The notes under the pieces are model-generated. The model was not told the DNA's origin, ran no database searches, and saw nothing but the letters and a program-made list of their open reading frames with translations. The position numbers and the translations under genes were made by a program. From Pseudomonas sp. 14P_8.1_Bac3 (GTDB lineage Bacteria; Pseudomonadota; Gammaproteobacteria; Pseudomonadales; Pseudomonadaceae), in assembly GCF_025466085.1 (NCBI RefSeq), contig NZ_JANLOD010000032.1:166482-196481 (forward strand): a stretch of 30,000 nucleotides of DNA. Direction: 5' to 3'. Shown here piece by piece: positions 5,281 to 30,000 of the stretch (positions within the stretch are counted from its first letter, which is position 1; every line of letters starts with the position of its first letter).

Positions 5281-5296
5281 TATTTTTCAGTAACTT

Positions 5297-13579: not shown

Positions 13580-14860
13580 TCAGGACTTCAGGGGTACTTG
13601 AAGCAAGGGCGCACCGCGATTGGCCATCAATCGCATGATTATCCACGCAGTCAAGTAAGAGCTCGCGCACACAATGAAAATCAGGTTGTAGCCGAGGGTA
13701 AGGTTTTCCAGGGCCTTGTAGTGTTGCAGAACGATGCCGACGATCAATGGAAATATCATCCCGCCCACTGAGCCCGCCGTGCCGCCAATGCCCATGACCG
13801 AGGCGACTTGCGAGCGCGGGAAATTGTCCGCAACGGTGGTGAACAGATTGGCTGACCAGCCCTGGTGGGCTGCGGCTGCCAGGCTCAACAGGCCAACCAT
13901 GACCCACATGTTGTCGATATAGCTGGAGAACCCGATTGGCAAAACCAGTATCGCCATGAACAACATCGCGCTATTGCGGGCTTTTGTTGTCGACCAGCCA
14001 GCACTGATCATTCGCGACGAAAGCCAGCCGCCGCCGACACTGCCGATGGAGGTCGCGCAGTAGACAATCATCAGCGGCAGTCCCAGGTGCTTGAGGTCGA
14101 GGTCGAAGCGACTGGAGAAGTAGGACGGCAACCAGAACAGCATGAACCACCAGATCGGGTCGGTGAGGAACTTGCCGGTGACAAACACCCAGGTGGAGCG
14201 CAGCTTTAGCAGATCGGCCCATTTGACCTTGTCGACGGGTTCAATGTGAGTGTCCTGGTTGATGTAGGCCAGTTCGCTTGGGCTGATCCTTGGATGTGCG
14301 GCAGGGCTCTGGTAAAAAATCTTCCAGAAAACCAGCCAGACAAATCCTGTGAGGCCGGTAATGATAAAGGCGGACTCCCAGCCGTACGTAGCGGCGAGCC
14401 ATGGCACACAGGCGGGTGCCAGAATTGCACCAACACTGGTTCCGGAAGTGAGAATGCCTACGGCCAGGGCCCGTTCATTTTTCGGGAACCACTCAGAAAC
14501 GGCCTTGATGGCCGCCGGGAAATTTCCCGATTCACCCAGCCCCAGCAAGGCGCGCATGTACATGAAACTCAAGGTGGACTGGGCAGCGGCATGGCCGATC
14601 GCGGCGATGCTCCAGACCGTGATGCAAAGGCCGTAGCCGAGCTTGGTGCCCAAGCGGTCGATCAGTTTGCCGAAGATCAGCAGTCCGCCCGCGTAGCAGG
14701 CCTGGAAGACAATGACCAGATAGCTGTAGTCCGTCTCGCTCCAATGAAACTGTTGTTCCAGAAGTGGCTTGAGCAGGCCAAGCACCTGTCGGTCGAGATA
14801 GTTGATCGTGGTGGCGAAAAACAGCAGCGTACAGATTTGCCAGCGGTATTGATGTGACAT
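13580..14860 (-). CDS. MFS transporter, anion:cation symporter family (ExuT/hexuronate-type sugar-acid transporter)
   Basis: The start is placed at MSHQYRWQICTLLFFATTINYLDRQVLG (ATG 14860). The motifs LGESGNFPAAIKAVSEWFPKNERA and the overall layout resemble ExuT/ACS-family permeases. The track's 63-codon upstream extension overlaps the preceding gene. Confidence 0.9.
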   Translation of the reverse strand: MSHQYRWQICTLLFFATTINYLDRQVLGLLKPLLEQQFHWSETDYSYLVIVFQACYAGGLLIFGKLIDRLGTKLGYGLCITVWSIAAIGHAAAQSTLSFMYMRALLGLGESGNFPAAIKAVSEWFPKNERALAVGILTSGTSVGAILAPACVPWLAATYGWESAFIITGLTGFVWLVFWKIFYQSPAAHPRISPSELAYINQDTHIEPVDKVKWADLLKLRSTWVFVTGKFLTDPIWWFMLFWLPSYFSSRFDLDLKHLGLPLMIVYCATSIGSVGGGWLSSRMISAGWSTTKARNSAMLFMAILVLPIGFSSYIDNMWVMVGLLSLAAAAHQGWSANLFTTVADNFPRSQVASVMGIGGTAGSVGGMIFPLIVGIVLQHYKALENLTLGYNLIFIVCASSYLTAWIIMRLMANRGAPLLQVPLKS

Positions 14861-14909
14861 TTGGGCATCTCGCTTCTTATTGTTCTTGTGAACTGTGGGG
14901 GTACGGCAG

Positions 14910-15767
14910 CTAACAACAGCGCTGCAAACGTTCGGCGCACACGCGCAAAACCTCGGCTTCGTCACGTTTCCACCAGTTGTCCCGGGAAAAGATTTCGACT
15001 TCGACAGCGCCCTCATAACCGGCCGTTTCAATCTGCTGGCGAATGCCACGCAGATCGATGACCCCGTCGCCCATCATGCCGCGATCCAGCAGCAAGTCCT
15101 GGGTAGGCACCAGCCAGTCGGACAGGTGCAGGCCCAATATTCGTTGTTGTGCACCGGCGCGCTGTATTTGCTCGTGCAGCCTGGGGTCCCACCAGCAGTG
15201 ATAGACGTCCACGGCAACGCCCAGATGCTGGTAGTTTCCAGGCTCGAGCAATTCGCACAAGTCCAATGCCTGCTCCAGCGTCGACAAGCAGGAACGGTCC
15301 GCTGCATACATCGGGTGCAGCGGTTCCAGAGCCAGCGATACCTGATGCTGTTTGGCGTGATCAAGCAGCAAGGCCAAGCCTTCGGCTACCTGATTGCGTG
15401 CTGCCGGCAGATCCCGGGAGCCTGCGGGCAAGCCACCGACCACCATGACGAAGCATTTTGCTTGCAACTCGGCGGCTTCCTCGATGGCTTTGAGGTTGTC
15501 GGCAATGGCAGCGTCGAAGTCCTGTCGCGTGGCTTGCGGGATGTAGGTCGAGCGACAATAAGCGTTTACCTTTAGTCCGCTGTCGTGTAACTGCCGGCGA
15601 ACCTGGCTGAGCGTGCGGCCTTGGATATCCTTGCGCCACGGGGCGACGTAACCGAATCCCGCGTGGGCGATAAGGTCCAGGGTCTGCTCGATAGGCAGAC
15701 GATGGCCGAGTGTGGCGGTGTTGATCGAACAGAGGTCGAGCCGGTTTTCCAGCGTGCGCAATGTCAT
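14910..15767 (-). CDS. Xylose-isomerase-like TIM-barrel protein (sugar phosphate isomerase/epimerase family)
   Basis: 285 aa with a GGAGAA RBS. It has the alternating pattern typical of the AP-endonuclease-2/IolE-like TIM barrel (…FGYVAPWRKD…, …VMVVGGLP…, …LALEPLHP…, …GVAVDVYHCWWD…, …LHLSDW…, …YEGAVEVEIFS). Confidence 0.85.
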   Translation of the reverse strand: MTLRTLENRLDLCSINTATLGHRLPIEQTLDLIAHAGFGYVAPWRKDIQGRTLSQVRRQLHDSGLKVNAYCRSTYIPQATRQDFDAAIADNLKAIEEAAELQAKCFVMVVGGLPAGSRDLPAARNQVAEGLALLLDHAKQHQVSLALEPLHPMYAADRSCLSTLEQALDLCELLEPGNYQHLGVAVDVYHCWWDPRLHEQIQRAGAQQRILGLHLSDWLVPTQDLLLDRGMMGDGVIDLRGIRQQIETAGYEGAVEVEIFSRDNWWKRDEAEVLRVCAERLQRCC

Positions 15768-15834
15768 TCAATTCTCCACGAATGCAGATGGTCCCATCAC
15801 GGAGCGCGGCACAGGCGGCGCTCCGCGTAACACG

Positions 15835-17010
15835 TTAAGCGTCTACGCCATAGAGACCGAGGAAGGTTTTCATTCTGGCCACGGCCAATGCCGGGTCGCT
15901 GAGTAGCCCGGCCTGGTCGGCGAGACGGAAGATCTCGCAGAAGTAGGGCAGGGGACGCATGGCTTGTTGGCCACCGAGCATGATGAAGTGATCCTGATGG
16001 CCATTGAGGTAGGCCAGGAACACCACACCTGTTTTGTAGTACTGGGTCGGGCTGCTGAAAATCAGGCGTGCCAGCGGCACGGTAGGATCAAGCAGGGCGT
16101 GGTAACGCGCCACATCACCCTCTGCCAAAGCCGCCAGTGCGTGTGAGGCTGCCGGTGCGATGGCATCGAAAATACCCAGTAGGGCGTGGGAGAAACCCTG
16201 TTCATCACCGGCGATCAGTTCCGGATAGTTGAAGTCGTCACCGGTGTACATCTTCACCGATTCCGGCAGTCGTCGGCGCAGGAGGATTTCCTTCTCCTTG
16301 TCGAGCAACGAGATTTTGATTCCGTCGACCTTGGCCGGGTTCTCGTGAATGATTTCAAGACAGGTTTCCAGTGCCTGCTCAAACTTCTGACTGCCCCAGT
16401 ACCCGGTTAGGGCCGGATCGAACATGTCACCCAGCCAGTGCAAGATCACCGGTTGCCGGGCATCCGCCAGTACCTTGCGGTAGACCCGTTTGTAGTCCTG
16501 GGCACCTTTGGCAACACGCGCCAAGGCGCGGCTGGCCATGAGAATGATGCGCCCGTCGAGCTTGTCGATCGCGCTGTGTTGTTCGTCATACGCCTTGAGA
16601 ACATCATCAAGACTACTGGCCTCATTTGCCGCCAATTGATCAGTCCCGCAGCCGGAAAAAATCACTGCATGCTTGATGTCGCGAGTATCTGCGAGCGTGC
16701 GTTTGATCAGCTCCAGTGCGGTCGGCCAATCGAGGCCCATGCCACGCTGGGCCGTGTCCATTGCCTCTGCAATGCCCAGGCCCTGTTGCAGGAGGTAGCG
16801 CCGATACTGAAGGGTTTTGTCCCAGTCGATGGCGGCTGTGCTGCCAGGCTGGTTGGCACTGAACGGGTCGGCGACGACGTGTGCGGCAGACAAGGCGATT
16901 CGGTTATTGGGCAACGGTTTAGCCGGCGGTAAAAGAGGCTCGCCAGTCAACGAGTATTTCTGCAGCGGGCGGGCCGCGTCAGAGGTCAACAAATCAATGG
17001 TTAAAGGCAT
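15835..17010 (-). CDS. DUF993-like protein (DHDPS-like barrel family of unknown function)
   Basis: The motifs SAAHVVADP, AIDWDKTLQYRRYLLQQGLGIAEAMDTAQRGMGLDWPTALELI match my recollection of DUF993 proteins, which are commonly encoded next to TIM-barrel isomerase/epimerase genes. ATG 17010 is preferred over the TTG at 17028. The family call is unverified. Confidence 0.7.
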   Translation of the reverse strand: MPLTIDLLTSDAARPLQKYSLTGEPLLPPAKPLPNNRIALSAAHVVADPFSANQPGSTAAIDWDKTLQYRRYLLQQGLGIAEAMDTAQRGMGLDWPTALELIKRTLADTRDIKHAVIFSGCGTDQLAANEASSLDDVLKAYDEQHSAIDKLDGRIILMASRALARVAKGAQDYKRVYRKVLADARQPVILHWLGDMFDPALTGYWGSQKFEQALETCLEIIHENPAKVDGIKISLLDKEKEILLRRRLPESVKMYTGDDFNYPELIAGDEQGFSHALLGIFDAIAPAASHALAALAEGDVARYHALLDPTVPLARLIFSSPTQYYKTGVVFLAYLNGHQDHFIMLGGQQAMRPLPYFCEIFRLADQAGLLSDPALAVARMKTFLGLYGVDA

Positions 17011-17029
17011 GTGCGTGTCTCTTGGCAAA

Positions 17030-17800
17030 TTAGAACTTTGGAATCAACAGGCCGCCGTCTACTGGCACTGCCTGGCCGACGGTGTAGGGCAAGCCACCAG
17101 TCGCCATGGTGATCACGACACGCGCGACATCTTCGGGCAGTCCCCAGCGTTTAATGGCGGTCAGACCATGTTCAATTTCCGCGTCGTAGCGGGCCTTGGA
17201 CGGTGCCGTCATTTCGGTGGCGATCAGCCCCGGTTGCACCTCGTAGACCCCAATGCCTTCATCGGCCAGACGCACTGCGAACAAGCGCGAGGCCATGGAC
17301 AAGCCGGCCTTGGAAATGCCGTATTCGCCGCGCAAGGTCGACACCGCATGCACGTTGGAGGAGGTGATGGTGATGATGCAGCGATGGCGTTCGCTCGGCG
17401 TTTGCGATTTAAGACGGCGGGCAAACGCCTGGGTCAGAAAGAACGTACCGCGGGTGTTGATCTGATGGCATCGATCAAAGCTCTGCGGGGTGACGTCAAG
17501 CAAGTCGCCCCGTGACAGAACCGAAACTCCGGCATTATTGACCAGGCATGTCAGCGGACCGAGTGCTGCCTGGGCAGCATCAAGCAGCGTTTCATTTCGC
17601 TCGATGGCCGCGATGTCACCCGCCAGTGCAACCGCGTGTGCGCCTGCATCTGTGGCGAGCCGTACGGTTTCCTGAAGCGCCTCATCGACCTGCAAATCCA
17701 CCACGGCCAGATCGAAACCGGCTTGCGCCAGGCCCACCGCAATGGCGCGGCCGATACCTCCGCGTGCGCCGGTAACCAGCGCGGTTGGACGCGCAATCAT
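17030..17800 (-). CDS. Short-chain dehydrogenase/reductase (SDR)
   Basis: TGARGGIGRAIA cofactor motif, NNAG, and the catalytic YGISKAG (YxxxK). The start overlaps the ACAD stop as ATGA. Confidence 0.92.
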   Translation of the reverse strand: MIARPTALVTGARGGIGRAIAVGLAQAGFDLAVVDLQVDEALQETVRLATDAGAHAVALAGDIAAIERNETLLDAAQAALGPLTCLVNNAGVSVLSRGDLLDVTPQSFDRCHQINTRGTFFLTQAFARRLKSQTPSERHRCIITITSSNVHAVSTLRGEYGISKAGLSMASRLFAVRLADEGIGVYEVQPGLIATEMTAPSKARYDAEIEHGLTAIKRWGLPEDVARVVITMATGGLPYTVGQAVPVDGGLLIPKF

Positions 17801-18942
17801 GAGCGTGCCCCGTGGTTAAGCAGCTCACGGGCAATGATCGTGCGCTGGATCTGGTTGGTGCCTTCGTAGATCTGGGTGATCTTCGCGTCGCGGTACAGAC
17901 GCTCGACTTCGAAACCACGGATGAATCCGCTGCCGCCGAACAACTGCACGGCATTGGCGGTGTGCGCTACGGCAATGTCTGCGGCGAAACACTTGGCCAT
18001 CGAGCAGGCAATGGTGGCGTTGTCAGCGCGGTCCAGGCGATCCGCGGCATCGAGCACCAACAAGCGCGCGGCACGAATGTCTTTGGCCATGTCCGCCAGA
18101 ATCCACTGCAACCCCTGGTTGTCAGCGATGGGTTTGCCAAACTGTTTGCGTTGCGGCACGTACTCGAGCGCCGCCTCAAGACCTGCCTGGGCAATGCCCA
18201 CCGCCAGCGACGCGATGCCGATCCGGCCTTTGTCCAGGGCGCTCATCATGATGTGAAAACCACGGCCTTCCTGGCCGAGCAGGGCATCGGGAGCGAGTTC
18301 TACGTTGTCGAAATTCAATCCGCCGACCTGCGATGCGCGCTGTCCCATCTTGTGTTCTTTGGGTCCTTTGGACACGCCGGGCAAATGGCAATCGACGATG
18401 AAAATACTCATCCCGCGTTTGCCTGCCGCCGGGTCAGTGCGCGCCAGCACAAACGCGAGGTCAGCCACCGGTGCGTTATGAATCCACAGTTTCGAACCGT
18501 TGAGCAGCCAGCCATTCTCGGTACGAACAGCAGTGGTGCGAATCCCCGACACATCTGAGCCGGCCTCGGCTTCGGTGATGCAGTACGCCGGGTGCTTTTG
18601 TGCGCTCAGCAAAGAGGGCAGAAAACGCTCACGCTGCTCGGCGCTGCCGTGCACCGATAACAAGGTGCCGATGAGCTCCAGCAGACCGCATTGGTCCGCT
18701 ATCGAGGCATAGCCTCGCGACAACTCTTCCATCACCAACGCATAGGCGCTGGTATCCAGGCCGGCACCACCAAACGCTTCAGGCACGGTGATGCCGAACA
18801 GGCCCAGTTCACCCATTTGACGGTACAGCGCGGCGGGGAAGCTTTCGTCGTGATCGAGCTGTTCAGCCAGCGGGCGGATTGCCTGGTCGGCAAAACGACG
18901 GGCCAGATCACGGATCTGCACGTGGGTTTCAGAAAGCTGCAT
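17797..18942 (-). CDS. Acyl-CoA dehydrogenase
   Basis: 381 aa from ATG 18942, with an AAAGGA RBS. It shows the ACAD N, middle and C domain pattern, and the C-terminal IYEGTNQIQRTIIAREL contains the catalytic Glu position of MCAD/SCAD-type enzymes. Confidence 0.93.
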   Translation of the reverse strand: MQLSETHVQIRDLARRFADQAIRPLAEQLDHDESFPAALYRQMGELGLFGITVPEAFGGAGLDTSAYALVMEELSRGYASIADQCGLLELIGTLLSVHGSAEQRERFLPSLLSAQKHPAYCITEAEAGSDVSGIRTTAVRTENGWLLNGSKLWIHNAPVADLAFVLARTDPAAGKRGMSIFIVDCHLPGVSKGPKEHKMGQRASQVGGLNFDNVELAPDALLGQEGRGFHIMMSALDKGRIGIASLAVGIAQAGLEAALEYVPQRKQFGKPIADNQGLQWILADMAKDIRAARLLVLDAADRLDRADNATIACSMAKCFAADIAVAHTANAVQLFGGSGFIRGFEVERLYRDAKITQIYEGTNQIQRTIIARELLNHGARS

Positions 18943-19030
18943 TGTTTTTTTCCTTTCTGTTGCGCGACGGGAAAAGGCCTTCATCGCTTGGGTTGTGTTC
19001 TGTTTTTAGCTGGATTAAAGTGAATCTATG

Positions 19031-19048
19031 TAACCAACCGGTTATTTA
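19031..19048. promoter_or_regulatory. Operator-like imperfect palindrome, copy 1 (TAACCAACCGGTTATTTA), in the divergent ACAD-operon / CoA-transferase intergenic region
   Basis: It is nearly centred in the 192-bp divergent region, 89 nt from ATG 18942 and 87 nt from ATG 19135. In a 20-nt core it shares 18/20 positions with each of the copies at 21488-21505 and 24914-24931. Confidence 0.6.
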
Positions 19049-19134
19049 TTTAATGCGTCCTTTCTGAAAGCGTCAAGCGCTCTCTGAAAAATCTCGGATT
19101 CGATTGCGGCAAACGTATTGATGAGGAAACAACA

Positions 19135-20646
19135 ATGAAAAGAAGCTGTTCATCAGCGTCAGAAGTGGTTAGCAGGATGGGTGACGGGGCCACGATCGCG
19201 GTCTGCGGTTCAGGGACTCTGCTGGAACCTGACGCGCTGCTTGCGGCGATCGAAGCATCGTTTTTGCGTACAGGTCATCCCTGCGGGCTTACCGTGGTTC
19301 ACGCGCTGGGAATTGGTGATGGGCAAGGCAGTGGTCTGGAGCGGCTCGCACACGAAGGCTTGGTGAAAAGGGTCATTGGCGGGCATTGGAGCTGGTCGGC
19401 CAAGATGCAAGCGCTGGCGCGTAACAATGCGATAGAGGCGTACAGCTTGCCTGCCGGGGTGATCATGAGCCTGATGCGGGAGATCGGTGCGGCGCGTCCG
19501 GGCCTGATTACGCATATCGGTCTGGGCACCTTCGCCGATCCACGGGTTGCGGGTGGCAAATGCAACGCTCGGGCGACCGAATCGATCGTTGAGCGTCTGG
19601 ACATCGATGGCAAAACATACTTGCGTTACAAACCATTCAAGGTCGATGTGGCCATTGTCCGGGGCAGCCTGGCTGATCCGAGCGGGAACATTTCCCTGTG
19701 CCACGAAGCGGCGGATCTGGATGCCTATGCGCTGGCGCTGGCGGCCCATAACAGTGGTGGCAAGGTGTACGCCCAGGTTCGTGAGCTGAGCGACAGTGCT
19801 TTTGTTCCGGCGCGGCTGGTACGGATTCCCGGCGTGCTGGTCGATGAAGTGGTCGTTGTGCCCGAGCAACGTCAATGTGTAGCGGCTGATTATGACCCGG
19901 CCATCAGCGGCGAATGCCTGGCGCAATCGGCAGAGGTCGAAACGTCCATTCCAGACGACATCCGTCGAATCATTGCGCAGCGCGCAGCTGACGAATTCAT
20001 GCCCGGCATGTCCTTGAATTTCGGGTTCGGCATTCCTGGCGGCATTCCTTCATTGCTCGCCGAGCGCGGTTTGCAAGACAGTTATTGGGGCAGTATCGAA
20101 CAGGGCATTCATAACGGCCGGATGATGGGCGGTGCGATGTTTGGCGCTGCGCGTTATCCGCAAGCGATTGTCACCTCCCTTGATCAGTTTGATTTTTACA
20201 GCGGTGGCGGGGTGGACCTGGCTTTTCTCGGCATGGGCGAAATGGACAGCCAGGGCAACGTCAACGTATCCAGCCTCGGTGGCACGCTGGTCGGTCCCGG
20301 TGGTTTTATCGACATTACCCAGGGCGCTCGCAAAGTGGTGTTTTGCGGAGCCTTTGAGGCCAAGGGATTGGAGGTGGCGAAGGTCGGTGGCGAGTTGCAG
20401 CTCAATCGGCTCGGCGAGGTTCCCAAGCTGGTTGAAAAAGTCCGTCATATCACCTTCAGCGGGCCGCAAGCCGTACTGGCCGGACAGGAAGTGCTCTATG
20501 TCACGGAGCGCGCAGTGTTCAGGCTTATACCCGAAGGCATTGAGTTGATCGAGGTTGCACAAGGCGTCGATATCCAGCGTGACGTGCTTGATCGCATGGC
20601 GTTCACGCCCATCGTTCGCGATGTGAAAGTGGCAGGGCTGGTGTGA
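19135..20646 (+). CDS. Family I CoA-transferase, fused alpha/beta type (YdiF-like acyl-CoA:acetate/3-ketoacid CoA-transferase)
   Basis: 503 aa with a GAGGAA RBS. The N-terminal GDGATIAVCGSG... and the overall pattern resemble the fused YdiF-type enzymes. A candidate catalytic Glu lies in GSIEQGIHNG. Confidence 0.88.
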   Translation: MKRSCSSASEVVSRMGDGATIAVCGSGTLLEPDALLAAIEASFLRTGHPCGLTVVHALGIGDGQGSGLERLAHEGLVKRVIGGHWSWSAKMQALARNNAIEAYSLPAGVIMSLMREIGAARPGLITHIGLGTFADPRVAGGKCNARATESIVERLDIDGKTYLRYKPFKVDVAIVRGSLADPSGNISLCHEAADLDAYALALAAHNSGGKVYAQVRELSDSAFVPARLVRIPGVLVDEVVVVPEQRQCVAADYDPAISGECLAQSAEVETSIPDDIRRIIAQRAADEFMPGMSLNFGFGIPGGIPSLLAERGLQDSYWGSIEQGIHNGRMMGGAMFGAARYPQAIVTSLDQFDFYSGGGVDLAFLGMGEMDSQGNVNVSSLGGTLVGPGGFIDITQGARKVVFCGAFEAKGLEVAKVGGELQLNRLGEVPKLVEKVRHITFSGPQAVLAGQEVLYVTERAVFRLIPEGIELIEVAQGVDIQRDVLDRMAFTPIVRDVKVAGLV

Positions 20647-20651
20647 TGCTT

Positions 20652-20685
20652 GCCCCTTTTGGCTTGCGTGCGTGCGAAAAGGGGC
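20652..20685. terminator. Hairpin between the convergent CoA-transferase and tetR genes; a possible bidirectional terminator
   Basis: GCCCCTTTT (20652-20660) and AAAAGGGGC (20677-20685) form a 9-bp perfect stem with a 16-nt loop. Confidence 0.5.
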
Positions 20686-20702
20686 GATTGGAGCTGGCTG
20701 TC

Positions 20703-23099: not shown

Positions 23100-23136
23100 T
23101 CCGCGGCCGTACAAAAACAAGAGAGGAAACATCACC

Positions 23137-24789
23137 ATGTACGATTTCGTCATTATCGGCGGTGGTTCGGCAGGTTGCGTGCTGGCGGCGCGATTGAGCG
23201 AGTCGATCGACGTTCGAGTACTTTTGCTCGAAGCGGGGCCCGCTGACACCAACCCTTACATTCATATGCCGGTCGGCTTTTTCAAGATGACGGGTGGGCC
23301 TCTGACCTGGGGCTATAAAGCCGTGGCGCAGGGTGACATCCAGGATCGCTCGATTCTCTTTCCCCAAGGCCGGGTTCTGGGCGGGGGTGGCTCGATCAAC
23401 GCAATGGTCTATACCCGTGGCAATGCCAAAGACTATGACGATTGGGAGCAGGAGGAGGGCTGCCGTGGCTGGTCTTATCGCGATGTGCTGCCTTATTTTC
23501 GCAAGGCCGAGGACAACGAGCGGTTCTCCAATGAGTATCATGGCACCGAAGGCCCCTTGGGTGTCTCCGATCTGATCACGGTCAACGAGCTGACGAAGGC
23601 ATTCGTGCGGTCTGCCCAGGAGGCGGGTATTCCGTACAACCCGGACTTCAATGGTGCCAGGCAAGAAGGCTGTGGCACCTATCAAGTCACGCAACGCGGC
23701 GGACGCCGTTGCAGCGCGGCCCAAGGTTATTTGAGCAAGGTTCGCAATCGACCCAATCTGACCATTCAGACGGAATGCCTGGTGACGCGGATTCGTATCG
23801 AGGACGGCCAGGCCACGGGGGTGGAGTATGTTCAGGGTAGCGGTTCGCGAGAGGTGAAATTCGTCGCGGCCGAGCGCGAGGTCGTGGTGGCGGCGGGGGC
23901 TATTGGCTCCCCCAAGATTCTAATGCTCTCTGGTGTCGGTCCGGCCGAAGAACTGGCCGGTCTGGGGATCGCGGTCAAGCAGGACTTGCCTGGTGTAGGG
24001 CAGAACCTGCAAGACCATTTTGACATCGATATCGTCTATGAGCTCAAGGGTTCGCAGAGCCTGGACAAGTACGCCAAGCCGCACATGATGTTAATGGCAG
24101 GTCTGGAATATAAGCTCTTCAACAAAGGCCCCGTGACTTCGAACATCGCTGAGGCTGGCGCTTTCTGGTACGGCGACTCACGCTCCAGCACGCCTGATCT
24201 GCAGTTTCATTTTTTGCCGGGGGCAGGTGTCGAGGCGGGTATTCCTCCCGTTCCTTCGGGGGCTGGTTGCACGCTCAACTCGTACTTCCTGCGCCCTCGC
24301 AGTCGTGGCAGCGTGAGGTTGCGTAGCGCTGACCCCTTGCAACCGCCGTCAATTGATCCCAACTACGTCAGCGACCCGTATGACCTGCATGTCTCAGTAG
24401 AAGGTATCAAGTTGAGCCGGGAAATCATGGCCCAGCATTCCTTGAGTCGTTACCTCAAATCCGAGCATTTTCCTGGTACCAGTGTGCGCACCCAGGCGGA
24501 TTACGAAGATTACGCACGACGTTGCGGTCGAACCGGCTATCACCCGGTCGGGACATGCAAAATGGGGGTAGACGAATTCGCTGTGGTCGACCCGCAGCTG
24601 CGTGTGCGCGGCGTGCAGCGGCTACGCGTCATCGACTCTTCAGTGATGCCTCGGCTGATCAGCGCCAACACCAATGCGCCTTCGATCATGATTGCCGAGA
24701 AGGGGGCCGACCTTCTGCTGGGGCGCACCCTGACGCCTTCTGAAGTGCAGACCAAAAGCGGTCTCCAATCCCAGGATCAAACCGTATAA
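23137..24789 (+). CDS. GMC-family FAD oxidoreductase (choline/alcohol dehydrogenase-like)
   Basis: A GAGAGGA RBS precedes ATG 23137. The protein starts MYDFVIIGGGSAGCVLAARLSE (GxGxxG) and has GGGGSINAMVYTRG (GMC signature) and the C-terminal HPVGTCKMG active-site His region. The track's start at 22813 is an out-of-gene extension overlapping the ALDH. Confidence 0.93.
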   Translation: MYDFVIIGGGSAGCVLAARLSESIDVRVLLLEAGPADTNPYIHMPVGFFKMTGGPLTWGYKAVAQGDIQDRSILFPQGRVLGGGGSINAMVYTRGNAKDYDDWEQEEGCRGWSYRDVLPYFRKAEDNERFSNEYHGTEGPLGVSDLITVNELTKAFVRSAQEAGIPYNPDFNGARQEGCGTYQVTQRGGRRCSAAQGYLSKVRNRPNLTIQTECLVTRIRIEDGQATGVEYVQGSGSREVKFVAAEREVVVAAGAIGSPKILMLSGVGPAEELAGLGIAVKQDLPGVGQNLQDHFDIDIVYELKGSQSLDKYAKPHMMLMAGLEYKLFNKGPVTSNIAEAGAFWYGDSRSSTPDLQFHFLPGAGVEAGIPPVPSGAGCTLNSYFLRPRSRGSVRLRSADPLQPPSIDPNYVSDPYDLHVSVEGIKLSREIMAQHSLSRYLKSEHFPGTSVRTQADYEDYARRCGRTGYHPVGTCKMGVDEFAVVDPQLRVRGVQRLRVIDSSVMPRLISANTNAPSIMIAEKGADLLLGRTLTPSEVQTKSGLQSQDQTV

Positions 24790-24800
24790 CGCTTGGGTTT

Positions 24801-24831
24801 CTGCGCATCGATAGCTGTCCTTGATGCGCAG
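24801..24831 (+). terminator. Hairpin after the GMC stop; terminator-like but with no U-tract
   Basis: CTGCGCATC (24801-24809) and GATGCGCAG (24823-24831) form a 9-bp perfect stem with a 13-nt loop. Confidence 0.4.
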
Positions 24832-24913
24832 GAGCTTCATCGCTATCGACCATTCGAGAATTTTTTAACCTCCTCCAATCGCTAACGATTGCATCCTCGC
24901 TGCATTAGATTTA

Positions 24914-24931
24914 TAAATAACTAGTTGGTTA
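24914..24931. promoter_or_regulatory. Operator-like palindrome, copy 3 (TAAATAACTAGTTGGTTA, inverted orientation), upstream of the ABC transporter operon
   Basis: The reverse complement TAGTAACCAACTAGTTATTTATAAAT matches copy 1 at 18/20 core positions. The central CCGG is replaced by the equally palindromic CTAG. It is embedded in an AT-rich, promoter-like stretch 53 nt upstream of ATG 24984. Confidence 0.55.
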
Positions 24932-24983
24932 CTAAAAATACAATAAAGCGCTTATCACCCGGTGAGGCGCGTCCGGAGGTCAC

Positions 24984-26090
24984 ATGAATAACAACAATGA
25001 AAATGATCCAGTTCGGCTCCTCGAAATGAGCCGCCGCAAGCTGTTGTTGGGAGCCGCCAGCCTGGCCGGTGCCGGTGCAGTGGCGGGTTTGTTTCCCACG
25101 ATGCTGTGGGCACAGACAACGCTGACTTTCTCCAACTCCTTCCGTTCGCTGACCAATCCCTACCACGCGATTTTCAATCGTGGCGGTGAAGCCTATGCCG
25201 CCAGCCAGAAGCTGCCGTACTCGCCGCTTGTGACCGAAGGCAACAGCCAGAAGGGCATTGCCGACATTCGCGCCTTGATCGCCAAGACTGACGGCAACCT
25301 GATCCTCAACGTCGAACCGAACGATTCCGCCGACGCCCGGGTCATCATCGAGCAATGCGTCAAGGCTGGCGTATACGTCACAACCATCTGGAACAAGCCG
25401 GATGACATGCATCCCTGGGACTACAGTCCGTATTGGGTGGCACACATGGCCGAGGATGGCCAGGCCGTGGGTGAGGCGGTGGCCATTGAACTGTTCGAAG
25501 CAATGGGTGGAAAGGGCGGTATCGTCGGCTTGGGCGGCATCTTCAGTAACGTTGCGTCGATCGGACGCCGCAGCGGCCTTGACGCTGCCTTGAAAAAATA
25601 TCCAGACATCAAGCTACTGGATTTCCAGGCGGCCGACTGGAGTGCCAACAAAGCGTTCCCGATCGTGCAGTCCTGGCTAACGCGTTTCGGCAGCGAGATC
25701 AAAGGCATCTGGTGCGCCAATGACGACATGGGCATGGGCGCACTGGAAGCGTTACGCGGCGAAGGGTTGGCGGGGACGATTCCGGTGGTTGGTATCGATG
25801 CTATCGAACAGGCCGTGGATGCCATTCGTACCGGCGAATATGTCGCCACCTCCAACCTGGACCCGTACTGGCTCGGCAGCATGGGATTGGCACTGGCGCA
25901 TGCGGCCAAAACCGGCCAGTTCGATCCGGCTAAAGAGCCTCACGAGCATCGCGAGTTCTATGTACGGCCACAGTTGATCACGAAGAAGAACGTCGAAGCC
26001 TTTTATGCGACCAACTTCAAGGGGACGCCGACGCTGGATGTCAGCGATTTCTGGGGTCGAATTGCCGGGCCCATTCGCTACAACTCGTAA
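24984..26090 (+). CDS. Periplasmic sugar-type ABC substrate-binding protein (ribose/PBP1 family) with a twin-arginine signal peptide
   Basis: GGAGG RBS. The N-terminus is ...EMSRRKLLLGAASLAGAGAVAGLFPTMLWAQ (the SRRxLL Tat motif). The rest has a PBP1-like pattern. Confidence 0.9.
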   Translation: MNNNNENDPVRLLEMSRRKLLLGAASLAGAGAVAGLFPTMLWAQTTLTFSNSFRSLTNPYHAIFNRGGEAYAASQKLPYSPLVTEGNSQKGIADIRALIAKTDGNLILNVEPNDSADARVIIEQCVKAGVYVTTIWNKPDDMHPWDYSPYWVAHMAEDGQAVGEAVAIELFEAMGGKGGIVGLGGIFSNVASIGRRSGLDAALKKYPDIKLLDFQAADWSANKAFPIVQSWLTRFGSEIKGIWCANDDMGMGALEALRGEGLAGTIPVVGIDAIEQAVDAIRTGEYVATSNLDPYWLGSMGLALAHAAKTGQFDPAKEPHEHREFYVRPQLITKKNVEAFYATNFKGTPTLDVSDFWGRIAGPIRYNS

Positions 26091-26148
26091 CCCCTCAGTC
26101 ACGAATTTTCCTGTTTCTGCTGCCCTTTAACCAGAGGCGCAGCGGTAC

Positions 26149-27132
26149 ATGAACGCTTTTTCAATGCCTGTTTCCGGAGTTATCGTCATGGTCCGCCTGC
26201 GACGGTTTTCATCGCTTATTGTCCTGCTGCTCATCGGTCTGCTCATCGGTTCGGTCAATCCCAGTTTTTTTGACCCGATGAACCTGGCTCGAATCGCCAC
26301 CACATCGTCAATTCCGCTACTGATGGCGTTGGGGGGACTGTTCGTTATTCAGATGGGAAGTATCGACCTTTCCGTTGAAGGGGTTGTTGCGGTCTCAGCG
26401 GTATCGCTCGCTTTGCTGATCGGCAACTCCATCAATAGCCACGCCATTGGGTTTTGGGCGCTGCCGATAGCGATCCTGGTTGGCGCACTGACCGGTCTTA
26501 TCAACGGGCTGTTGCAAGTCAAAATGCGCATCCCGTCGTTCATGGCCACGCTGGGCGTCGGTTTCATCGGCATTGGCCTGGCCACCGCTTTGCTTGAAGG
26601 CAACACCGTGCGGGTGCTCGACATGAATACCCGGGCGATTGCCTTGACTCGCCTGATGGGGTTGCCGGTATCGGTCTGGATTGTGGTGTTGGCGCTGGGT
26701 GTCGCTCACTTCATTTCCCGGCACACGACGCTGGGGCGGCACGCGCTGGCCATTGGTGGCGGGGAGGATCTGGCGCGACTCAATGGCATCAACGTCAACC
26801 GTACGCGGATCACCATTTTCGCTTTGGCCGGGGCCTTTTACGGGTTGGCGGCGATCCTCGCCGTGGCTCAGTTCGGGCAAGGGCATGCATTGATTGCCCA
26901 AGGCCAACTGTTTACCGCGATCACTGCGATTGTCGTTGGCGGCGCCTCATTGGCAGGTGGCAATGGCAGCCCGTTGGGAACGTTGCTGGGGGTGTTGATC
27001 GTCGTGGTGGTCAGCAATGGCATGGTGCTGATGGGGGTCGCCCCCTACGTCCAGCAAGGTGTGCAGGGCGTGCTGATTATTGCCGCTGTAGCCATCGCCC
27101 TCGATCGTGCGAAAGCACGTGTCGTCAAGTGA
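26149..27132 (+). CDS. ABC transporter permease (ribose/BPD-2 type), first of two
   Basis: It is multi-pass hydrophobic, with the characteristic ...LSVEGVVAVSAV..., ...IPSFMATLG... and ...GGASLAGGNGSPLGTLLGVL... motifs. The alternative start ATG 26188 has a better RBS (GGAG 8 nt upstream). Confidence 0.9.
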   Translation: MNAFSMPVSGVIVMVRLRRFSSLIVLLLIGLLIGSVNPSFFDPMNLARIATTSSIPLLMALGGLFVIQMGSIDLSVEGVVAVSAVSLALLIGNSINSHAIGFWALPIAILVGALTGLINGLLQVKMRIPSFMATLGVGFIGIGLATALLEGNTVRVLDMNTRAIALTRLMGLPVSVWIVVLALGVAHFISRHTTLGRHALAIGGGEDLARLNGINVNRTRITIFALAGAFYGLAAILAVAQFGQGHALIAQGQLFTAITAIVVGGASLAGGNGSPLGTLLGVLIVVVVSNGMVLMGVAPYVQQGVQGVLIIAAVAIALDRAKARVVK

Positions 27133-27141
27133 GGAGGTCCC

Positions 27142-28644
27142 ATGCTCACGCTCAATAATGTCAGTAAACGGTTCAACGGCGTCACGGTGCTGAAGAACAT
27201 TTCGCTTGAAGTGCGCAAACACGAAGTTGTCGGGCTGATCGGCGAAAACGGTGCAGGCAAATCGACGTTGATGAAGATTCTCACCGGTGTCTACCAACCG
27301 GATGAAGGTCATTTGGAACTCGATGGTTCGCCAATCCTGCTCGATGGTCCGCGTGGCGCCACCGCCAACGGCATCGCCATGGTTTACCAGGAGCAATCGA
27401 TCCTGCTCAACCTGTCGGTCGCTGAAAACCTGTTCATGGGGCGCGAGGACGAGTTCTCGCGCTTCGGTTGGCTGAACTGGAAAAAACTGCACAAGGCTGC
27501 TCGCCTGCAATTGGCCAAAGTCAATCTGGATATCGACCCTGGCATGTTGTGCAGTGAGTTGAGCTTCGGTCAGCGGCAAATGATTGAACTGGCCAAGGCC
27601 CTGGCACTGGAAGAGCGTACTGACGGTCATTTGGTGATCCTTCTGGATGAGCCGACCTCGGCACTCGAACAAAAGGAAATTGACACATTGTTCCGCTTGG
27701 TGCGGCAACTCAAGTCCCGTGCTTCGTTCATCTTCGTCTCCCATCGACTGGACGAGTTACTCGACCTCAGTGACCGGGTTTATGTGATGAAGGACGGGGA
27801 AGTGGTGGCGCAAATGGACGCCGCCGAAGCCTCGAAAGACCGCTTGCACACCTTGATGGTAGGTCGTTCGCTGCATGCCGAGTTTTACCGTGAGTCACTC
27901 CAGCAGCCGTGCTTGTCCGAGGTCGTGATGTCGGCGCGCGAGTTGGCGCTCGACGGCCACTTTTCCAGCCTGGATTTCGATTTGCATCGTGGAGAAGTGC
28001 TTGGCATCGCCGGGGTCATTGGCTCGGGCCGTGAAGAGTTGTGTCGGGTGCTGGCCGGTTTGATGCCTAAAAGTCGCGGTGAAATCCAGGTGCAAGGCCG
28101 TCGTTTGGACACTGGAAACCCGCGGGCGGCGATTCGTGCGGGTATCGGTTACATCCCCCGTGAACGCAAGGTTGAAGGCATCGTTTCAATGCTCAGCGTG
28201 GCGCAGAACATGACCCTGGCGCGCATCGGTCAAGTGACCTCGCTTGGGCTGCTCGATGAGCGCAAAGAGCGTTCGATCGCCGAAGACTGGATCAAGCGCC
28301 TGAGCATCAAAACCCCGGGACCGGATGCTTTGCTGCTCAACCTCAGTGGTGGCAACCAGCAAAAAGTGGTGTTGGCCAAGTGGCGCAATGCGGGCTCCAC
28401 AATTCTGATTCTGGATCACCCGACTCGCGGGCTGGATGTGGGTGCCAAGGAAGACGTTTACCAACTGATCCGCGAGATCACCCGCCAAGGCGTCTCGGTG
28501 ATTCTGACCGCCGATACCCTGGAGGAGATGATTGGGCTGAGTCACCGGATTCTGGTCATGCGAGATGGTGAAGTTGCTCAATCCTTCGACTGCCTGCCCG
28601 GCGCCAAGCCGCAGCAAGTAGACCTGATCAAGTATATGGTTTGA
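27142..28644 (+). CDS. Sugar ABC transporter ATP-binding protein with tandem ABC domains
   Basis: GAGGAGG RBS. Domain 1 has Walker A GENGAGKST, signature LSFGQRQ and Walker B VILLDEPT. Domain 2 has the degenerate Walker A GVIGSGREEL, signature LSGGNQQK and ILILDHPTRGLD. Confidence 0.95.
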   Translation: MLTLNNVSKRFNGVTVLKNISLEVRKHEVVGLIGENGAGKSTLMKILTGVYQPDEGHLELDGSPILLDGPRGATANGIAMVYQEQSILLNLSVAENLFMGREDEFSRFGWLNWKKLHKAARLQLAKVNLDIDPGMLCSELSFGQRQMIELAKALALEERTDGHLVILLDEPTSALEQKEIDTLFRLVRQLKSRASFIFVSHRLDELLDLSDRVYVMKDGEVVAQMDAAEASKDRLHTLMVGRSLHAEFYRESLQQPCLSEVVMSARELALDGHFSSLDFDLHRGEVLGIAGVIGSGREELCRVLAGLMPKSRGEIQVQGRRLDTGNPRAAIRAGIGYIPRERKVEGIVSMLSVAQNMTLARIGQVTSLGLLDERKERSIAEDWIKRLSIKTPGPDALLLNLSGGNQQKVVLAKWRNAGSTILILDHPTRGLDVGAKEDVYQLIREITRQGVSVILTADTLEEMIGLSHRILVMRDGEVAQSFDCLPGAKPQQVDLIKYMV

Positions 28645-28656
28645 GAGAGTACAAAA

Positions 28657-29604
28657 ATGCCCATTTCCCTTAGCGGATTTCGCAGTCAGGCGCCTTTGCT
28701 GGCCTTGATTGTTCTGGTTGCACTGATCGGCGGATATGACCCTGGGTTCATTCACCCCGGTGCTGTTCTTGGTCTGCTTGCCGACACCTCGACACTGTTT
28801 GTGATGGCGACCGGCATTACTTTTGTATTGCTCATCGGCGGTATCGATCTGTCTTCCCAGGCCGTGGCTTCCATGGCCAGTGTGATTGTCGCGCTGTTGT
28901 TGCCGGCTTACGGATTCTGGGCTTTCCCGATCGGGCTCGGCTTGGGAATCGCGACCGGCGCACTCAGTGGCTTGCTGCATACGTGGCTGCGACTGCCCTC
29001 GTTCATTGTCACCCTGGCGGTCGGCGGCGTCGTTACCAGTGTCACCATGCTCGCGTCGAACAATCGGTCGATCAATATCGACGGCGCAGAGCGCGATGCC
29101 TGGTTTGGCTGGGTCACTGGCCATACCGCCGGAATTCCCAATGAAGTCTGCGTGGCCTTTGTTGTGCTCATGCTGTGCATTTTCCTGCATCGCAAGACGC
29201 CTTTCGGTCGGTTCGGCAACGCCATTGGGGCCGGTGAGCCCGCTGCCTGGGCGTCGGGTATCAACGTCAATCGCATCAAGATCATGACCTTCGCGATCTC
29301 GGCCGGTCTGGCGGCGTTGTCTGGAATCATCATGGCCGGAAGGCTGTCCAGCGGTTCACCCACTTTGGCCAATGAGTTCCTGTTGCCGGCAATCGCGGCG
29401 GTACTGGTGGGGGGCACGGCATTGACCGGTGGCGTGGGTGGCGTCTGGCGAACGCTGATTGGTGCGCTGCTGGTTTCCGTGGTGCGGATCGGCATGACGT
29501 TCGTGGGTGTCAGCGTGTTTGCCCAACAGATCGTTTTCGGCGTGATCCTGATCATCGCAGTGGCCTTCACCATCGATCGTTCGAAGCTTCCGGTCGTCAA
29601 GTAA
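28657..29604 (+). CDS. ABC transporter permease (ribose/BPD-2 type), second of two
   Basis: 315 aa, with the same family motifs as the first permease (IDLSSQAVASMASV, LPSFIVTLAVGG, GGTALTGGVGGVWRTLIGAL). Confidence 0.9.
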   Translation: MPISLSGFRSQAPLLALIVLVALIGGYDPGFIHPGAVLGLLADTSTLFVMATGITFVLLIGGIDLSSQAVASMASVIVALLLPAYGFWAFPIGLGLGIATGALSGLLHTWLRLPSFIVTLAVGGVVTSVTMLASNNRSINIDGAERDAWFGWVTGHTAGIPNEVCVAFVVLMLCIFLHRKTPFGRFGNAIGAGEPAAWASGINVNRIKIMTFAISAGLAALSGIIMAGRLSSGSPTLANEFLLPAIAAVLVGGTALTGGVGGVWRTLIGALLVSVVRIGMTFVGVSVFAQQIVFGVILIIAVAFTIDRSKLPVVK

Positions 29605-29631
29605 TACATCCCAATACGGTGGAAAACAGCA

Positions 29632-30000
29632 ATGAAAGTCCTTGTGTCAATCAAGCGGGTGGTCGACTACAACGTCAAGGTTCGCGTCAAGGCGGACAAT
29701 TCCGGCGTCGACCTCGCCAACGTCAAGATGTCGATGAACCCGTTCTGCGAAATCGCCGTGGAAGAAGCCGTACGCCTGAAAGAACAGGGGGTTGCCAGCG
29801 AGGTAGTGGTCGTCAGCATCGGCAGCAGCGCGGCTCAGGAACAATTGCGCACGGCCCTGGCATTGGGTGCTGACCGTGCGGTATTGGTCGAGGCCGCTGA
29901 AGACATGGGCTCGCTGGCCGTTGCCAAACTGTTGAAAGCGGTTGTCGACAAGGAACAGCCTCAGCTGGTGATCCTTGGCAAACAAGCGATCGACAGCGAC
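29632..30000 (+). CDS. etfB: Electron transfer flavoprotein beta subunit, N-terminal 123 codons (continues past the window end)
   Basis: This ORF is not in the supplied track because it runs off the window. My translation from ATG 29632 is [53 protein letters not shown]...LGADRAVLV...[15 protein letters not shown], a textbook EtfB N-terminus. Confidence 0.93.

Follow-up and report, generated by a model that had tools for sequence, protein, structure and literature searches.

A gene cluster around DUF993 in Pseudomonas sp. 14P_8.1_Bac3 that may encode a CoA-dependent route of carbohydrate breakdown

Gene content and extent of the cluster

The window analysed here is a 30,000-nucleotide stretch of Pseudomonas sp. 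14P_8.1_Bac3 (contig NZ_JANLOD010000032.1, positions 166,482 to 196,481), in which sugar-type transporters and alcohol- and aldehyde-oxidizing enzymes are encoded beside an acyl-CoA dehydrogenase (ACAD), a CoA-transferase, an electron transfer flavoprotein (ETF) subunit and a protein of the DUF993 family. This cluster is a catabolic regulon whose parts belong to known superfamilies but whose combination is undescribed, and it probably encodes an undescribed breakdown pathway. The gene content was established by scanning the six-frame open reading frames (ORFs) with Pfam and NCBIfam, structural matches were taken from PDB, and start codons were set by gene calls in near-identical contigs (e.g. 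L001). Every gene listed in a first-pass annotation of the sequence was recovered by the Pfam, NCBIfam and PDB scans with small shifts in coordinates; membership thus stood, while the longest ORFs proved too long for the major facilitator superfamily (MFS) transporter, the ACAD and the glucose-methanol-choline (GMC) oxidoreductase. The features, which also include a short-chain dehydrogenase/reductase (SDR), an aldehyde dehydrogenase (ALDH) and an ATP-binding cassette (ABC) importer of carbohydrate uptake transporter 2 (CUT2) type with its substrate-binding protein (SBP), are as follows.

12302-12772, minus strand: HbpS-like (GlcG-type) protein, cluster membership uncertain (PF03928)
13580-14860, minus strand: MFS transporter, anion:cation symporter type, 426 aa, encoded at the end of the ACAD operon (Pfam MFS_1, 220 bits)
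14910-15767, minus strand: xylose-isomerase-like TIM barrel, AP_endonuc_2 (PF01261, 130 bits)
15835-17010, minus strand: DUF993 protein, 391 aa, TTG start (PF06187, 602 bits)
17030-17800, minus strand: SDR, 256 aa (adh_short_C2)
17797-18942, minus strand: ACAD, 381 aa, with IYEGTNQIQ (three ACAD domains)
19030-19047: putative operator 1, in the gap separating the starts of the divergent ACAD and CoA-transferase genes (motif scan)
19135-20646, plus strand: fused family I CoA-transferase, YdiF/FadX-like, 503 aa (CoA_trans)
20703-21359, minus strand: TetR-family regulator (TetR_N and TetR_C_29)
21487-21504: putative operator 2, in the gap separating the starts of the divergent tetR and ALDH genes (motif scan)
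21588-23099, plus strand: NAD(P)-dependent ALDH, 503 aa, GTG start (Aldedh, 557 bits)
23137-24789, plus strand: GMC flavin oxidoreductase, 550 aa (GMC_oxred_N/C)
24915-24932: putative operator 3, lying 52 nt ahead of the SBP start (motif scan)
24984-26090, plus strand: SBP of CUT2 type (Peripla_BP_4; PDB 2rjo, 428 bits)
26149-27132, plus strand: ABC permease 1 (Pfam)
27142-28644, plus strand: double ATPase of the ABC importer (Pfam)
28657-29604, plus strand: ABC permease 2 (Pfam)
29632-30000, plus strand: 5' part of etfB, 122 codons, truncated at the window end (translation)

The minus-strand operon reads ACAD, SDR, DUF993, TIM barrel and MFS, with the CoA-transferase gene divergent from it, and the ATGA overlap reported earlier is visible in the sequence as the ACAD stop and SDR start. 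On the plus strand, etfB is probably part of the ABC transcription unit, since it begins only 27 nt after the last permease gene.

The first-pass annotation covered the cluster up to the end of the window. The real cluster is larger and runs past position 30000, as seen in a near-identical genome (CP143576.1, complete, here L086) that is 99.2% identical to window 18657-30000. There, the second permease is followed by EtfB (249 aa), EtfA (319 aa) and an OprB carbohydrate-selective porin and, on the opposite strand, by a 338-aa aldo-keto reductase and an HbpS-like protein, beyond which an integrase of phage type is encoded. Between the reductase and its counterpart in alphaproteobacterial clusters, identity is 62-77%; the reductase reaches no named NCBIfam equivalog and has no close solved structure. 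The HbpS-like protein encoded beside it is a 75% paralogue of that in the window, and HbpS-like genes also occur in four other cluster loci. The same core is found in Pseudomonas sp. GD03860 (L085) and Phytopseudomonas daroniae (L003).

Conservation and the shared operator

For comparison, DUF993 homologues were aligned and one genome per species was scanned, yielding 80 loci with 10-kb flanks; these species-level loci are the best matches only, and the full set comprises 84. Homologues of the window proteins were located in the loci by tblastn and all locus ORFs were clustered; the gene counts are lower bounds, with flanks ending at 10 kb or at contig ends. The DUF993 and TIM-barrel genes are adjacent in 80 of the 84 loci. 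Three classes were distinguished among the 80: 24 ACAD-type loci, nine without ACAD but with SDR, and 47 CoA-free loci, which apart from two exceptions carry no CoA genes. The ACAD-type loci span alpha-, beta- and gammaproteobacteria (among them Sinirhodobacter, Shinella, Rhizobium, Mesorhizobium, Labrenzia, Acetobacter, Gluconobacter, Gluconacetobacter, Caballeronia and Paraburkholderia), encode an ACAD orthologue of 69-80% identity and keep ACAD, SDR, DUF993 and TIM barrel collinear in 19 of 24 cases. The ACAD-less loci carry SDR-DUF993, with the TIM barrel in seven of nine, together with CoA-transferase, crotonase and usually GMC genes. The occurrence of individual members in ACAD-type, ACAD-less and CoA-free loci, respectively, is listed below.

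CoA-transferase: 19/24, 9/9, 2/47
GMC: 18/24, 7/9, 1/47
Crotonase: 14/24, 9/9, 1/47
ALDH: 12/24, 0/9, 0/47
338-aa reductase: 15/24, 1/9, 0/47
EtfB: 8/24, 0/9, 0/47
CUT2 SBP: 8/24, 0/9, 0/47

Across the 80 loci, CUT2 components were seen only alongside the ACAD-type cluster. Recurrent additional members are a DkgB-like reductase, a Dabb protein, MaoC hydratases, a Zn-alcohol dehydrogenase and CUT1 ABC systems, while glycerate 2-kinase, of the type known from the archaeal non-phosphorylative Entner-Doudoroff (npED) pathway, is encoded in 10 loci. OprB is also present in the Acetobacter malorum cluster, and a sugar-porter MFS in that of Gluconobacter. EtfBA directly follow the TIM-barrel gene in Sinorhizobium meliloti, Paracoccus versutus and five further loci (L014, L019, L023, L032 and L076), and ETF-quinone oxidoreductase (ETF-QO) is encoded after EtfBA in Gluconobacter and Rhizobium; the chain from ACAD through ETF to ETF-QO is thus complete within some clusters. 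ACAD orthologues make up at least 120 protein clusters at no less than 73% identity, and the orthologue was located on 65 plasmids. Full clusters of at least 16 genes lie on S. meliloti 1021 pSymA (765,131-784,379, NC_003037.1) and on P. versutus pTAV3, in the order ABC importer, Zn-alcohol dehydrogenase, ALDH, GMC; DkgB-like reductase; CoA-transferase, crotonase, glycerate kinase; 338-aa-type reductase; ACAD, SDR, DUF993, TIM barrel, EtfB, EtfA. RefSeq gives the genes of the P. versutus cluster generic names.

The expectation of the first-pass annotation that these units would be conserved together across genomes is borne out by this neighbourhood comparison, and because they share one operator as well, they constitute a functional cluster. 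The earlier remark that the window encodes neither enoyl-CoA hydratase nor thiolase also holds for the window ORFs scanned. As a trait of the cluster the missing hydratase does not hold, given the crotonase genes in 14 of 24 ACAD-type and all nine ACAD-less loci; its absence is a lineage feature, with no crotonase in the window, L085 or L086. No thiolase was found among the annotated recurrent ORF families or in a non-exhaustive sample of 370-440 aa ORFs; the recurrent families of the CoA-type loci likewise include no canonical sugar-acid dehydratase.

The setting of the DUF993-TIM pair differs in the other 47 loci, where it usually follows genes for a Gfo/Idh/MocA dehydrogenase and a 476-aa enolase-superfamily protein, the latter without PDB or NCBIfam match. 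Uptake in this type is encoded by NitT/TauT-type ABC systems or TctC-type carriers, and its TetR proteins are 46-53% identical to that of the window. The type is common in Bradyrhizobium, Microvirga, Variovorax, Xylophilus and Polaromonas (examples are L015, L017, L022, L027-L035, L043 and L052) and likewise has no assigned pathway. The two front ends exclude each other: CoA-free loci have the enolase-like protein and Gfo/Idh/MocA, the others CoA-transferase, crotonase, SDR and GMC. We infer that the DUF993-TIM pair forms a back-end module with a keto acid as its substrate, and that the CoA genes either stand in for the dehydratase and dehydrogenase of the CoA-free type or prepare a more reduced precursor.

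Several loci depart from these patterns. In L006, L021 and L071, the DUF993-TIM pair is accompanied by CoA-transferase, MaoC hydratases and an oligopeptide-type ABC system or the tripartite ATP-independent periplasmic (TRAP) component DctM; two of the three also have a shikimate-dehydrogenase-like gene and a LacI-type regulator, and L071 contains two copies each of the ACAD and CoA-transferase genes. A Boseongicola metagenome-assembled genome (L016, 2570-4054) encodes, upstream of the cluster, a 3-hydroxyacyl-CoA dehydrogenase fused to a thioesterase domain, an architecture which resembles carnitine dehydrogenase and is probably unrelated to the cluster. S. meliloti has an additional chromosomal DUF993/TIM pair, SMc04132/SMc04130. 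On its pSymA (L088, 755735-784874), EtfA is followed by a LysR gene and an opine-oxidase-like set comprising two FAD oxidoreductases, a family-5 SBP and an amidase.

Three intergenic regions of the window carry GTAACCAACCGGTTATTT-like 18-bp sites with the inverted-repeat core TAACC-N4-GGTTA. The three operator-bearing promoters noted at first reading were recovered by the motif scan, which gave exactly three sites in the window, one per promoter region (19030-19047, 21487-21504 and 24915-24932), against 0 expected from 100 shuffles. Allowing at most one mismatch, the core occurs 77 times in the 84 loci, compared with 22.6 +/- 3.2 expected, and 65 of these sites are intergenic. Elsewhere it marks promoters between reductase and ACAD, DkgB-like reductase and CoA-transferase, ALDH or GMC and TetR, and CoA-transferase and ACAD genes; the position of operator 1 is kept in L001-L003 and in other taxa. 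The CoA-free loci carry the motif between TetR and transporter, enolase-like or Gfo genes. In P. daroniae (L003, 1845-1858), the third operator stands between the GMC gene and tctB-tctA; because it precedes tctBA where the ABC importer is absent, the regulon of this species seems to use a carboxylate carrier instead.

TetR orthologues (41-98% identity) are encoded in 53 of the 84 loci, including those of the CoA-free type. As in TetR-type regulons, a TetR_N helix-turn-helix domain is combined with an inverted repeat in both the regulator's own and the target promoters. The sequence pattern suggests that TetR represses the cluster through the putative 18-bp operator.

Predicted enzymes and transporters

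The AlphaFold2 (AF2) model of the DUF993 protein (pLDDT 83) is matched best in Foldseek by PDB 4dnh, the unannotated S. meliloti protein SMc04132, to which the window protein is 58% identical. The matches that follow are many dihydrodipicolinate synthase (DHDPS) structures, MosA, PhdJ and a hydratase-aldolase, with E-values of 1e-10 to 1e-8 and target-normalized TM-scores of about 0.8. A phmmer alignment with Pseudomonas aeruginosa DHDPS, weak in itself (E ~5e-4), pairs VDGIKISLLD with IIGIKEATGD and MYTGDDF with VYSGDDA. It places K232 of DUF993 (DGIKIS), invariant in 27 homologues, on the GIKEA lysine, which is the Schiff-base residue of DHDPS. Pfam returns only PF06187, a profile search of PDB finds only 4dnh, and no named NCBIfam equivalog is reached. 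With a matching fold but no profile hit beyond 4dnh, DUF993 stands as a family of its own inside the DHDPS/N-acetylneuraminate lyase (NAL) class I aldolase fold, distinct from KdgD and 2-keto-3-deoxygluconate (KDG) aldolase. The first-pass annotation had suggested that both barrel enzymes act as dehydratase, isomerase or lyase; DUF993 is best read more narrowly, as a Schiff-base C-C lyase or dehydratase and not as a generic barrel. As no thiolase was seen, it is also the best candidate for the C-C cleavage step.

The TIM barrel exceeds the gathering threshold of PF01261 clearly (130 bits against 31.1). Five of its residues, E148, D187, H190, H214 and E258, are invariant in 26 homologues, and by analogy these acidic and histidine side chains would fit a metal site. 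Foldseek places 3ju2/3qc0 (SMc04130, 51% identity) and 7vpf (Paenibacillus sp. R4, 44% identity), all unannotated, closest to its AF2 model (pLDDT 88), followed by IolI, Escherichia coli EC1530 (1k77), the 3-keto-glucoside 4-epimerase YcjR, ketose 3-epimerases and AsbF. Entry 7vpf was considered as a characterized relative and rejected, being described merely as a "novel putative sugar isomerase". The characterized subfamilies IolO, Hyi, OtnI, UlaE and QuiC were not reached, the best score being 37.6 bits for IolO against a cutoff of 300. The modelled fold suggests that the enzyme probably moves, epimerizes or eliminates next to a carbonyl, and a role as keto-sugar or keto-acid isomerase or epimerase is proposed.

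The catalytic residues of the other enzymes are largely intact. In the ACAD, which scores about 333 bits to short-chain ACAD structures and whose orthologues are overall 69-98% identical across three proteobacterial classes, E360 (YEG) is conserved in 27 of 28 orthologues. The CoA-transferase matches PDB 2ahu (YdiF) with 371 bits and retains E322 of the EQG motif in 33 of 34. S147, Y160 and K164 of the SDR are conserved in 32 of 32 orthologues, and the protein passes only the generically named NCBIfam model NF009386 (352 bits). E266 and C299 of the ALDH are kept in 15 of 15, with no equivalog cutoff reached. The GMC protein scores 604 bits with the PRK02106 subfamily model, the cutoff of which is 605, and neither it nor the ALDH has an apparent signal peptide on reading of the sequence. 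The DkgB-like reductase and the IolM-like Zn-dehydrogenase of related clusters both match below cutoff.

As regards uptake, the best NCBIfam match of the MFS transporter is the D-galactonate transporter subfamily (218 bits, below cutoff). An orthologue of 61% identity is encoded in the A. malorum cluster (L014), and the transporter is proposed to carry the acid form of the substrate. The N-terminus of the SBP contains an RR pair and is Tat-like, its PDB match 2rjo comes from Paraburkholderia phytofirmans, and permease 1 resembles AraH/RbsC-type permeases, below cutoff. In other cluster versions, the ABC system is replaced by carboxylate-type transporters.

Proposed pathway, its alternatives and the genomic setting

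These genes very probably form one co-regulated carbohydrate-plus-CoA catabolic unit. The chances are about even that the unit is a TetR-repressed regulon for a carbohydrate-derived alcohol and its carboxylic acid, in which CoA-thioester chemistry replaces the usual dehydratase. Only tentatively may the pathway be described as a "sugar-acid beta-oxidation", in which CoA transfer and oxidation at C-alpha-C-beta by ACAD, ETF and ETF-QO are followed by Schiff-base cleavage in place of a thiolase reaction. A neutral, carbohydrate-like substrate is suggested by OprB, the CUT2 and CUT1 importers and the sugar-porter MFS, by the alphaproteobacterial gene order of importer, Zn-alcohol dehydrogenase, ALDH and GMC, and by the lack of an apparent signal peptide on the GMC and ALDH proteins, while the MFS, tripartite tricarboxylate transporter (TTT), TRAP and NitT/TauT carriers point to uptake of the acid form. 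The first-pass proposal of alcohol import, oxidation by GMC and ALDH and direct entry of the acid by way of the MFS is consistent with these features. A C3 product, glycerate or glyceraldehyde, is suggested by the glycerate 2-kinase.

The steps might proceed as follows, although the order is doubtful. The neutral compound would cross the outer membrane through OprB and enter by the CUT2 ABC importer, and cytoplasmic GMC and ALDH, joined in alphaproteobacteria by the Zn-alcohol dehydrogenase, would convert it to the acid, which could also be imported by the MFS. The YdiF-type transferase would form the CoA thioester, and ACAD would oxidize C-alpha-C-beta, passing electrons to ETF and on to quinone. 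Crotonase, where encoded, would add or remove water, the SDR would oxidize a hydroxyl to a ketone, and the TIM-barrel enzyme would shift or epimerize the carbonyl. A Schiff-base retro-aldol cleavage by DUF993, taking the place of thiolase, would then yield pyruvate or acetyl-CoA and a C3 aldehyde or acid, the latter entering glycolysis through ALDH or the reductases and glycerate 2-kinase.

Several points weigh against the proposed regulon and route. A short-chain-type ACAD needs hydrogen on both C-alpha and C-beta, which makes ordinary aldonic and uronic acids unsuitable without prior deoxygenation, and we know of no natural carbohydrate-derived acid with CH-CH beside the carboxylate. The DUF993-TIM pair occurs without CoA genes in 47 of 80 loci, the cluster versions of Pseudomonas, Burkholderiales and Acetobacteraceae encode no crotonase, and the link of DUF993 to DHDPS draws on the fold and one weak alignment (E ~5e-4). 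SDR, TIM barrel and DUF993 may act on free acids or on CoA esters, and the two halves of the cluster could be sequential modules sharing only an intermediate. With regard to regulation, TetR and operator are both missing from the S. meliloti copy, which is adjoined by a LysR gene.

The alternative that survives best, albeit an unlikely one, is that CoA-transferase and crotonase replace the enolase- or IlvD-type dehydratase of a Weimberg-, Dahms- or npED-type core, which runs from a dehydrogenase through a 2-keto-3-deoxy acid and a DHDPS-fold aldolase or dehydratase to an aldehyde dehydrogenase and glycerate kinase. The beta-hydroxyl would be eliminated from an aldonyl-CoA, and ACAD/ETF would extend the pathway to a deoxy analogue. 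This would agree with the two exclusive front ends adjoining the same DUF993-TIM pair with orthologous TetR and operator, with the lack of a canonical dehydratase among the recurrent families of CoA-type loci, and with a glycerate 2-kinase of archaeal npED type; moreover, the DHDPS/NAL superfamily includes the sugar-acid enzymes KDG aldolase, KdgD and L-2-keto-3-deoxyarabonate (L-KDA) dehydratase. However, the window version has ACAD without crotonase, oxidation of a 2-hydroxyacyl-CoA by ACAD would be an odd way to a 2-keto acid, and to our knowledge dehydration of an aldonate through its CoA ester is without precedent.

It is quite unlikely that the cluster consists of two sequential modules, with SDR, TIM barrel and DUF993 splitting a sugar keto acid and CoA-transferase, ACAD/ETF, crotonase, GMC and ALDH clearing a C3-C4 acid or alcohol, in the manner of the acrylate/3-hydroxypropionate route (AcuN/AcuK/DddA/DddC) plus a propionyl-CoA dehydrogenase. 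The combination of CoA-transferase, crotonase, GMC-type alcohol dehydrogenase and ALDH does recall the Halomonas acu/ddd cluster, YdiF-type transferases accept short acids, and the best NCBIfam matches of ACAD and EtfB are the Clostridium acryloyl-CoA reductase components AcrC and AcrB, both below cutoff. Yet ACAD is translationally coupled to SDR-DUF993-TIM and not to the transferase, and in alphaproteobacteria the ALDH-GMC pair comes directly after the sugar importer. The ALDH is not of the CoA-acylating methylmalonate-semialdehyde dehydrogenase (MMSDH) type, scoring 282 bits against 461 for the betaine-aldehyde dehydrogenase (BADH) model, and no common sugar gives propionate or 3-hydroxypropionate by aldol cleavage.

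A carbocyclic substrate, such as a cyclitol or hydroaromatic carboxylate, is distinctly improbable. It would be activated by CoA and undergo ring desaturation, hydration and oxidation as by AliB, BadK and BadH, after which the Schiff-base enzyme would open the ring and the TIM barrel would take a role like that of IolE, IolI or a dehydroshikimate dehydratase. The scores that speak for it (cyclohexane-1-carbonyl-CoA dehydrogenase as second-best NCBIfam match of ACAD, with 307 bits; scyllo-inosose 3-dehydrogenase IolM and IolO as weak best matches of the Zn-dehydrogenase and the TIM barrel) all lie far below cutoff, although IolI and AsbF are among the structural neighbours of the TIM barrel. 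The shikimate-dehydrogenase-like gene is confined to two variant loci, and the presence of glycerate kinase and the DkgB-like reductase speaks for keto acids with an open chain. Finally, it is scarcely credible that a bet-like alcohol/aldehyde oxidation pair and a sugar importer came to lie next to fatty-acid genes within a genomic island by chance. The flanking integrase genes and repeated 410-bp segment and the 604-bit match of GMC to the choline dehydrogenase subfamily model might point to such a mosaic, but it is contradicted by synteny over three classes and a common operator, by the missed BetA, BetB and BetI equivalog cutoffs and by the absence of a betaine-type transporter.

The proposed pathway and its alternatives can be set against characterized systems. 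The first-pass statement that the combination matches no described pathway is upheld by NCBIfam release 20, Pfam, PDB titles and the searchable literature. The bet system was rejected, as GMC reaches 516 bits with TIGR01810 (BetA, cutoff 732), ALDH 461 with TIGR01804 (BetB, 668.6) and the regulator 26.5 with TIGR03384 (BetI, 201.3); window Pfam scans revealed no betaine/choline-type transporter. Classical beta-oxidation was likewise rejected: its pairing of ACAD and ETF is present (E360 kept, EtfB in the window, EtfA in L086), but enoyl-CoA hydratase is absent from the window and no thiolase was seen among the recurrent families and ORFs sampled. The cluster resembles the E. coli ydiF-ydiO-ydiQRST set in its YdiF-type transferase, short-chain ACAD, EtfBA and, in some loci, ETF-QO; it differs from fatty-acid beta-oxidation in having no thiolase seen and no dehydrogenase of the 3-hydroxyacyl-CoA dehydrogenase (3HCDH) type, and in coupling ACAD to sugar-type enzymes, a porin and importers.

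Non-phosphorylative sugar-acid pathways (Weimberg/Dahms, npED, oxidative uronate/glucarate) share with the cluster a sugar-oxidizing dehydrogenase, a DHDPS/NAL-fold enzyme, an aldehyde dehydrogenase, glycerate 2-kinase and uptake by an anion:cation symporter-type MFS or an ABC system, and the CoA-free relatives share with them the enolase-superfamily protein and Gfo/Idh/MocA. Unlike these pathways, the window type lacks a canonical dehydratase and has a CoA-transferase, ACAD with its own ETF and, elsewhere, crotonase. Overall, the cluster would come closest in its working to a non-phosphorylative sugar-acid pathway to which a thioester/flavin front end has been added. The Gluconobacter L-sorbose/L-sorbosone dehydrogenase pair, in which ALDH precedes GMC and a CH2OH beside a carbonyl is converted to a 2-keto acid, offers a further possible analogy: the alphaproteobacterial order of importer, Zn-alcohol dehydrogenase, ALDH and GMC recalls the sequence from sorbitol through sorbose and sorbosone to 2-keto acid, with a polyol dehydrogenase upstream. 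Sorbose and sorbosone dehydrogenases are not known to be linked to CoA genes.

The CoA-dependent 2-deoxy-D-ribonate route of Klebsiella michiganensis and the oxidative deoxyribonate pathway of Pseudomonas simiae (PMC6365646) also process a sugar acid as CoA thioester or by beta-keto cleavage and share SDR, CoA-transferase and glycerate kinase with the cluster. They were rejected because their gene families differ (PMC6365646): deoxyribonate clusters encode CoA synthetase, 3-hydroxyacyl-CoA dehydrogenase and thiolase, or a DUF849 beta-keto acid cleavage enzyme, none of which was found in the window or among the recurrent cluster genes, and they lack ACAD/ETF, DUF993, the xylose-isomerase-like barrel and GMC plus ALDH. 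The direct homologues SMc04132 (4dnh), SMc04130 (3ju2/3qc0) and Paenibacillus 7vpf have no assigned function. Literature searches for DUF993/PF06187, 4DNH, 7VPF, 2RJO, 3JU2, 3QC0, SMc04129-04135, etfA2/etfB2 and pSymA SMa139x-143x (a tag range estimated from coordinates) returned nothing functional, and the GapMind paper does not mention these families (PMC9007349). Curing experiments showed that pSymA alone is required for phenotypes on D-fucose, 3-O-methylglucose, D-ribono-1,4-lactone and L-homoserine, while beta-D-allose, L-glucose and 5-ketogluconate need both replicons (PMC4207669); these phenotypes are leads only, and nothing ties them to the cluster.

The cluster is spread over many plant- and soil-associated proteobacteria, and two of its families have had crystal structures but no function for more than 10 years. 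As S. meliloti 1021 carries the full cluster on pSymA, the substrate question is directly testable. Solving it would reveal a common unrecognized carbon source, assign DUF993 and its partner barrel their first functions and possibly uncover a new carbohydrate-derived C-C cleavage by thioester and flavin chemistry. Were sugar-acid beta-oxidation true, it would provide first functions for PF06187, SMc04130-type TIM barrels and the conserved pair of ACAD and aldo-keto reductase, and explain the presence of an ETF system inside a sugar cluster of acetic acid bacteria. Generic labels such as "dihydrodipicolinate synthase family protein", "3-ketoacyl-ACP reductase" and the automatic UniRef name "3-sulfinopropanoyl-CoA desulfinase" could then be corrected.

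With respect to the genomic setting, a phage-type integrase is encoded upstream of the cluster (window 5350-6546, minus strand), a second integrase lies past the far cluster end in L086, and a 410-bp segment (window 4879-5289) recurs in L086 (16179-17847 region) with 86% identity. Because of the integrases at both ends and the repeated segment, the region of about 31 kb looks like an integrase-bounded genomic island. In Pseudomonas sp. GD03860, an integrase directly follows the MFS gene. The start of the window (25-4850), which encodes a methyl-accepting chemotaxis protein and the C-terminal part of PutA (proline dehydrogenase and ALDH domains, truncated at the window edge), is ordinary chromosomal context. 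Between the integrase and an SRPBCC gene (10549-10977), the ORFs tested at 6700-10200 (six on the plus and two on the minus strand) have no Pfam match; a 92%-identical metagenome contig (L001) has a LysR gene and fcs/ech/vdh-like genes in place of this stretch. Adjoining the cluster on the minus strand (11094-13498) are three genes for an IclR regulator, the HbpS-like protein and an AraJ/Cmx-like MFS, with a 4-nt overlap, and the motif scan located no TetR operator in this unit or near the HbpS-like gene.

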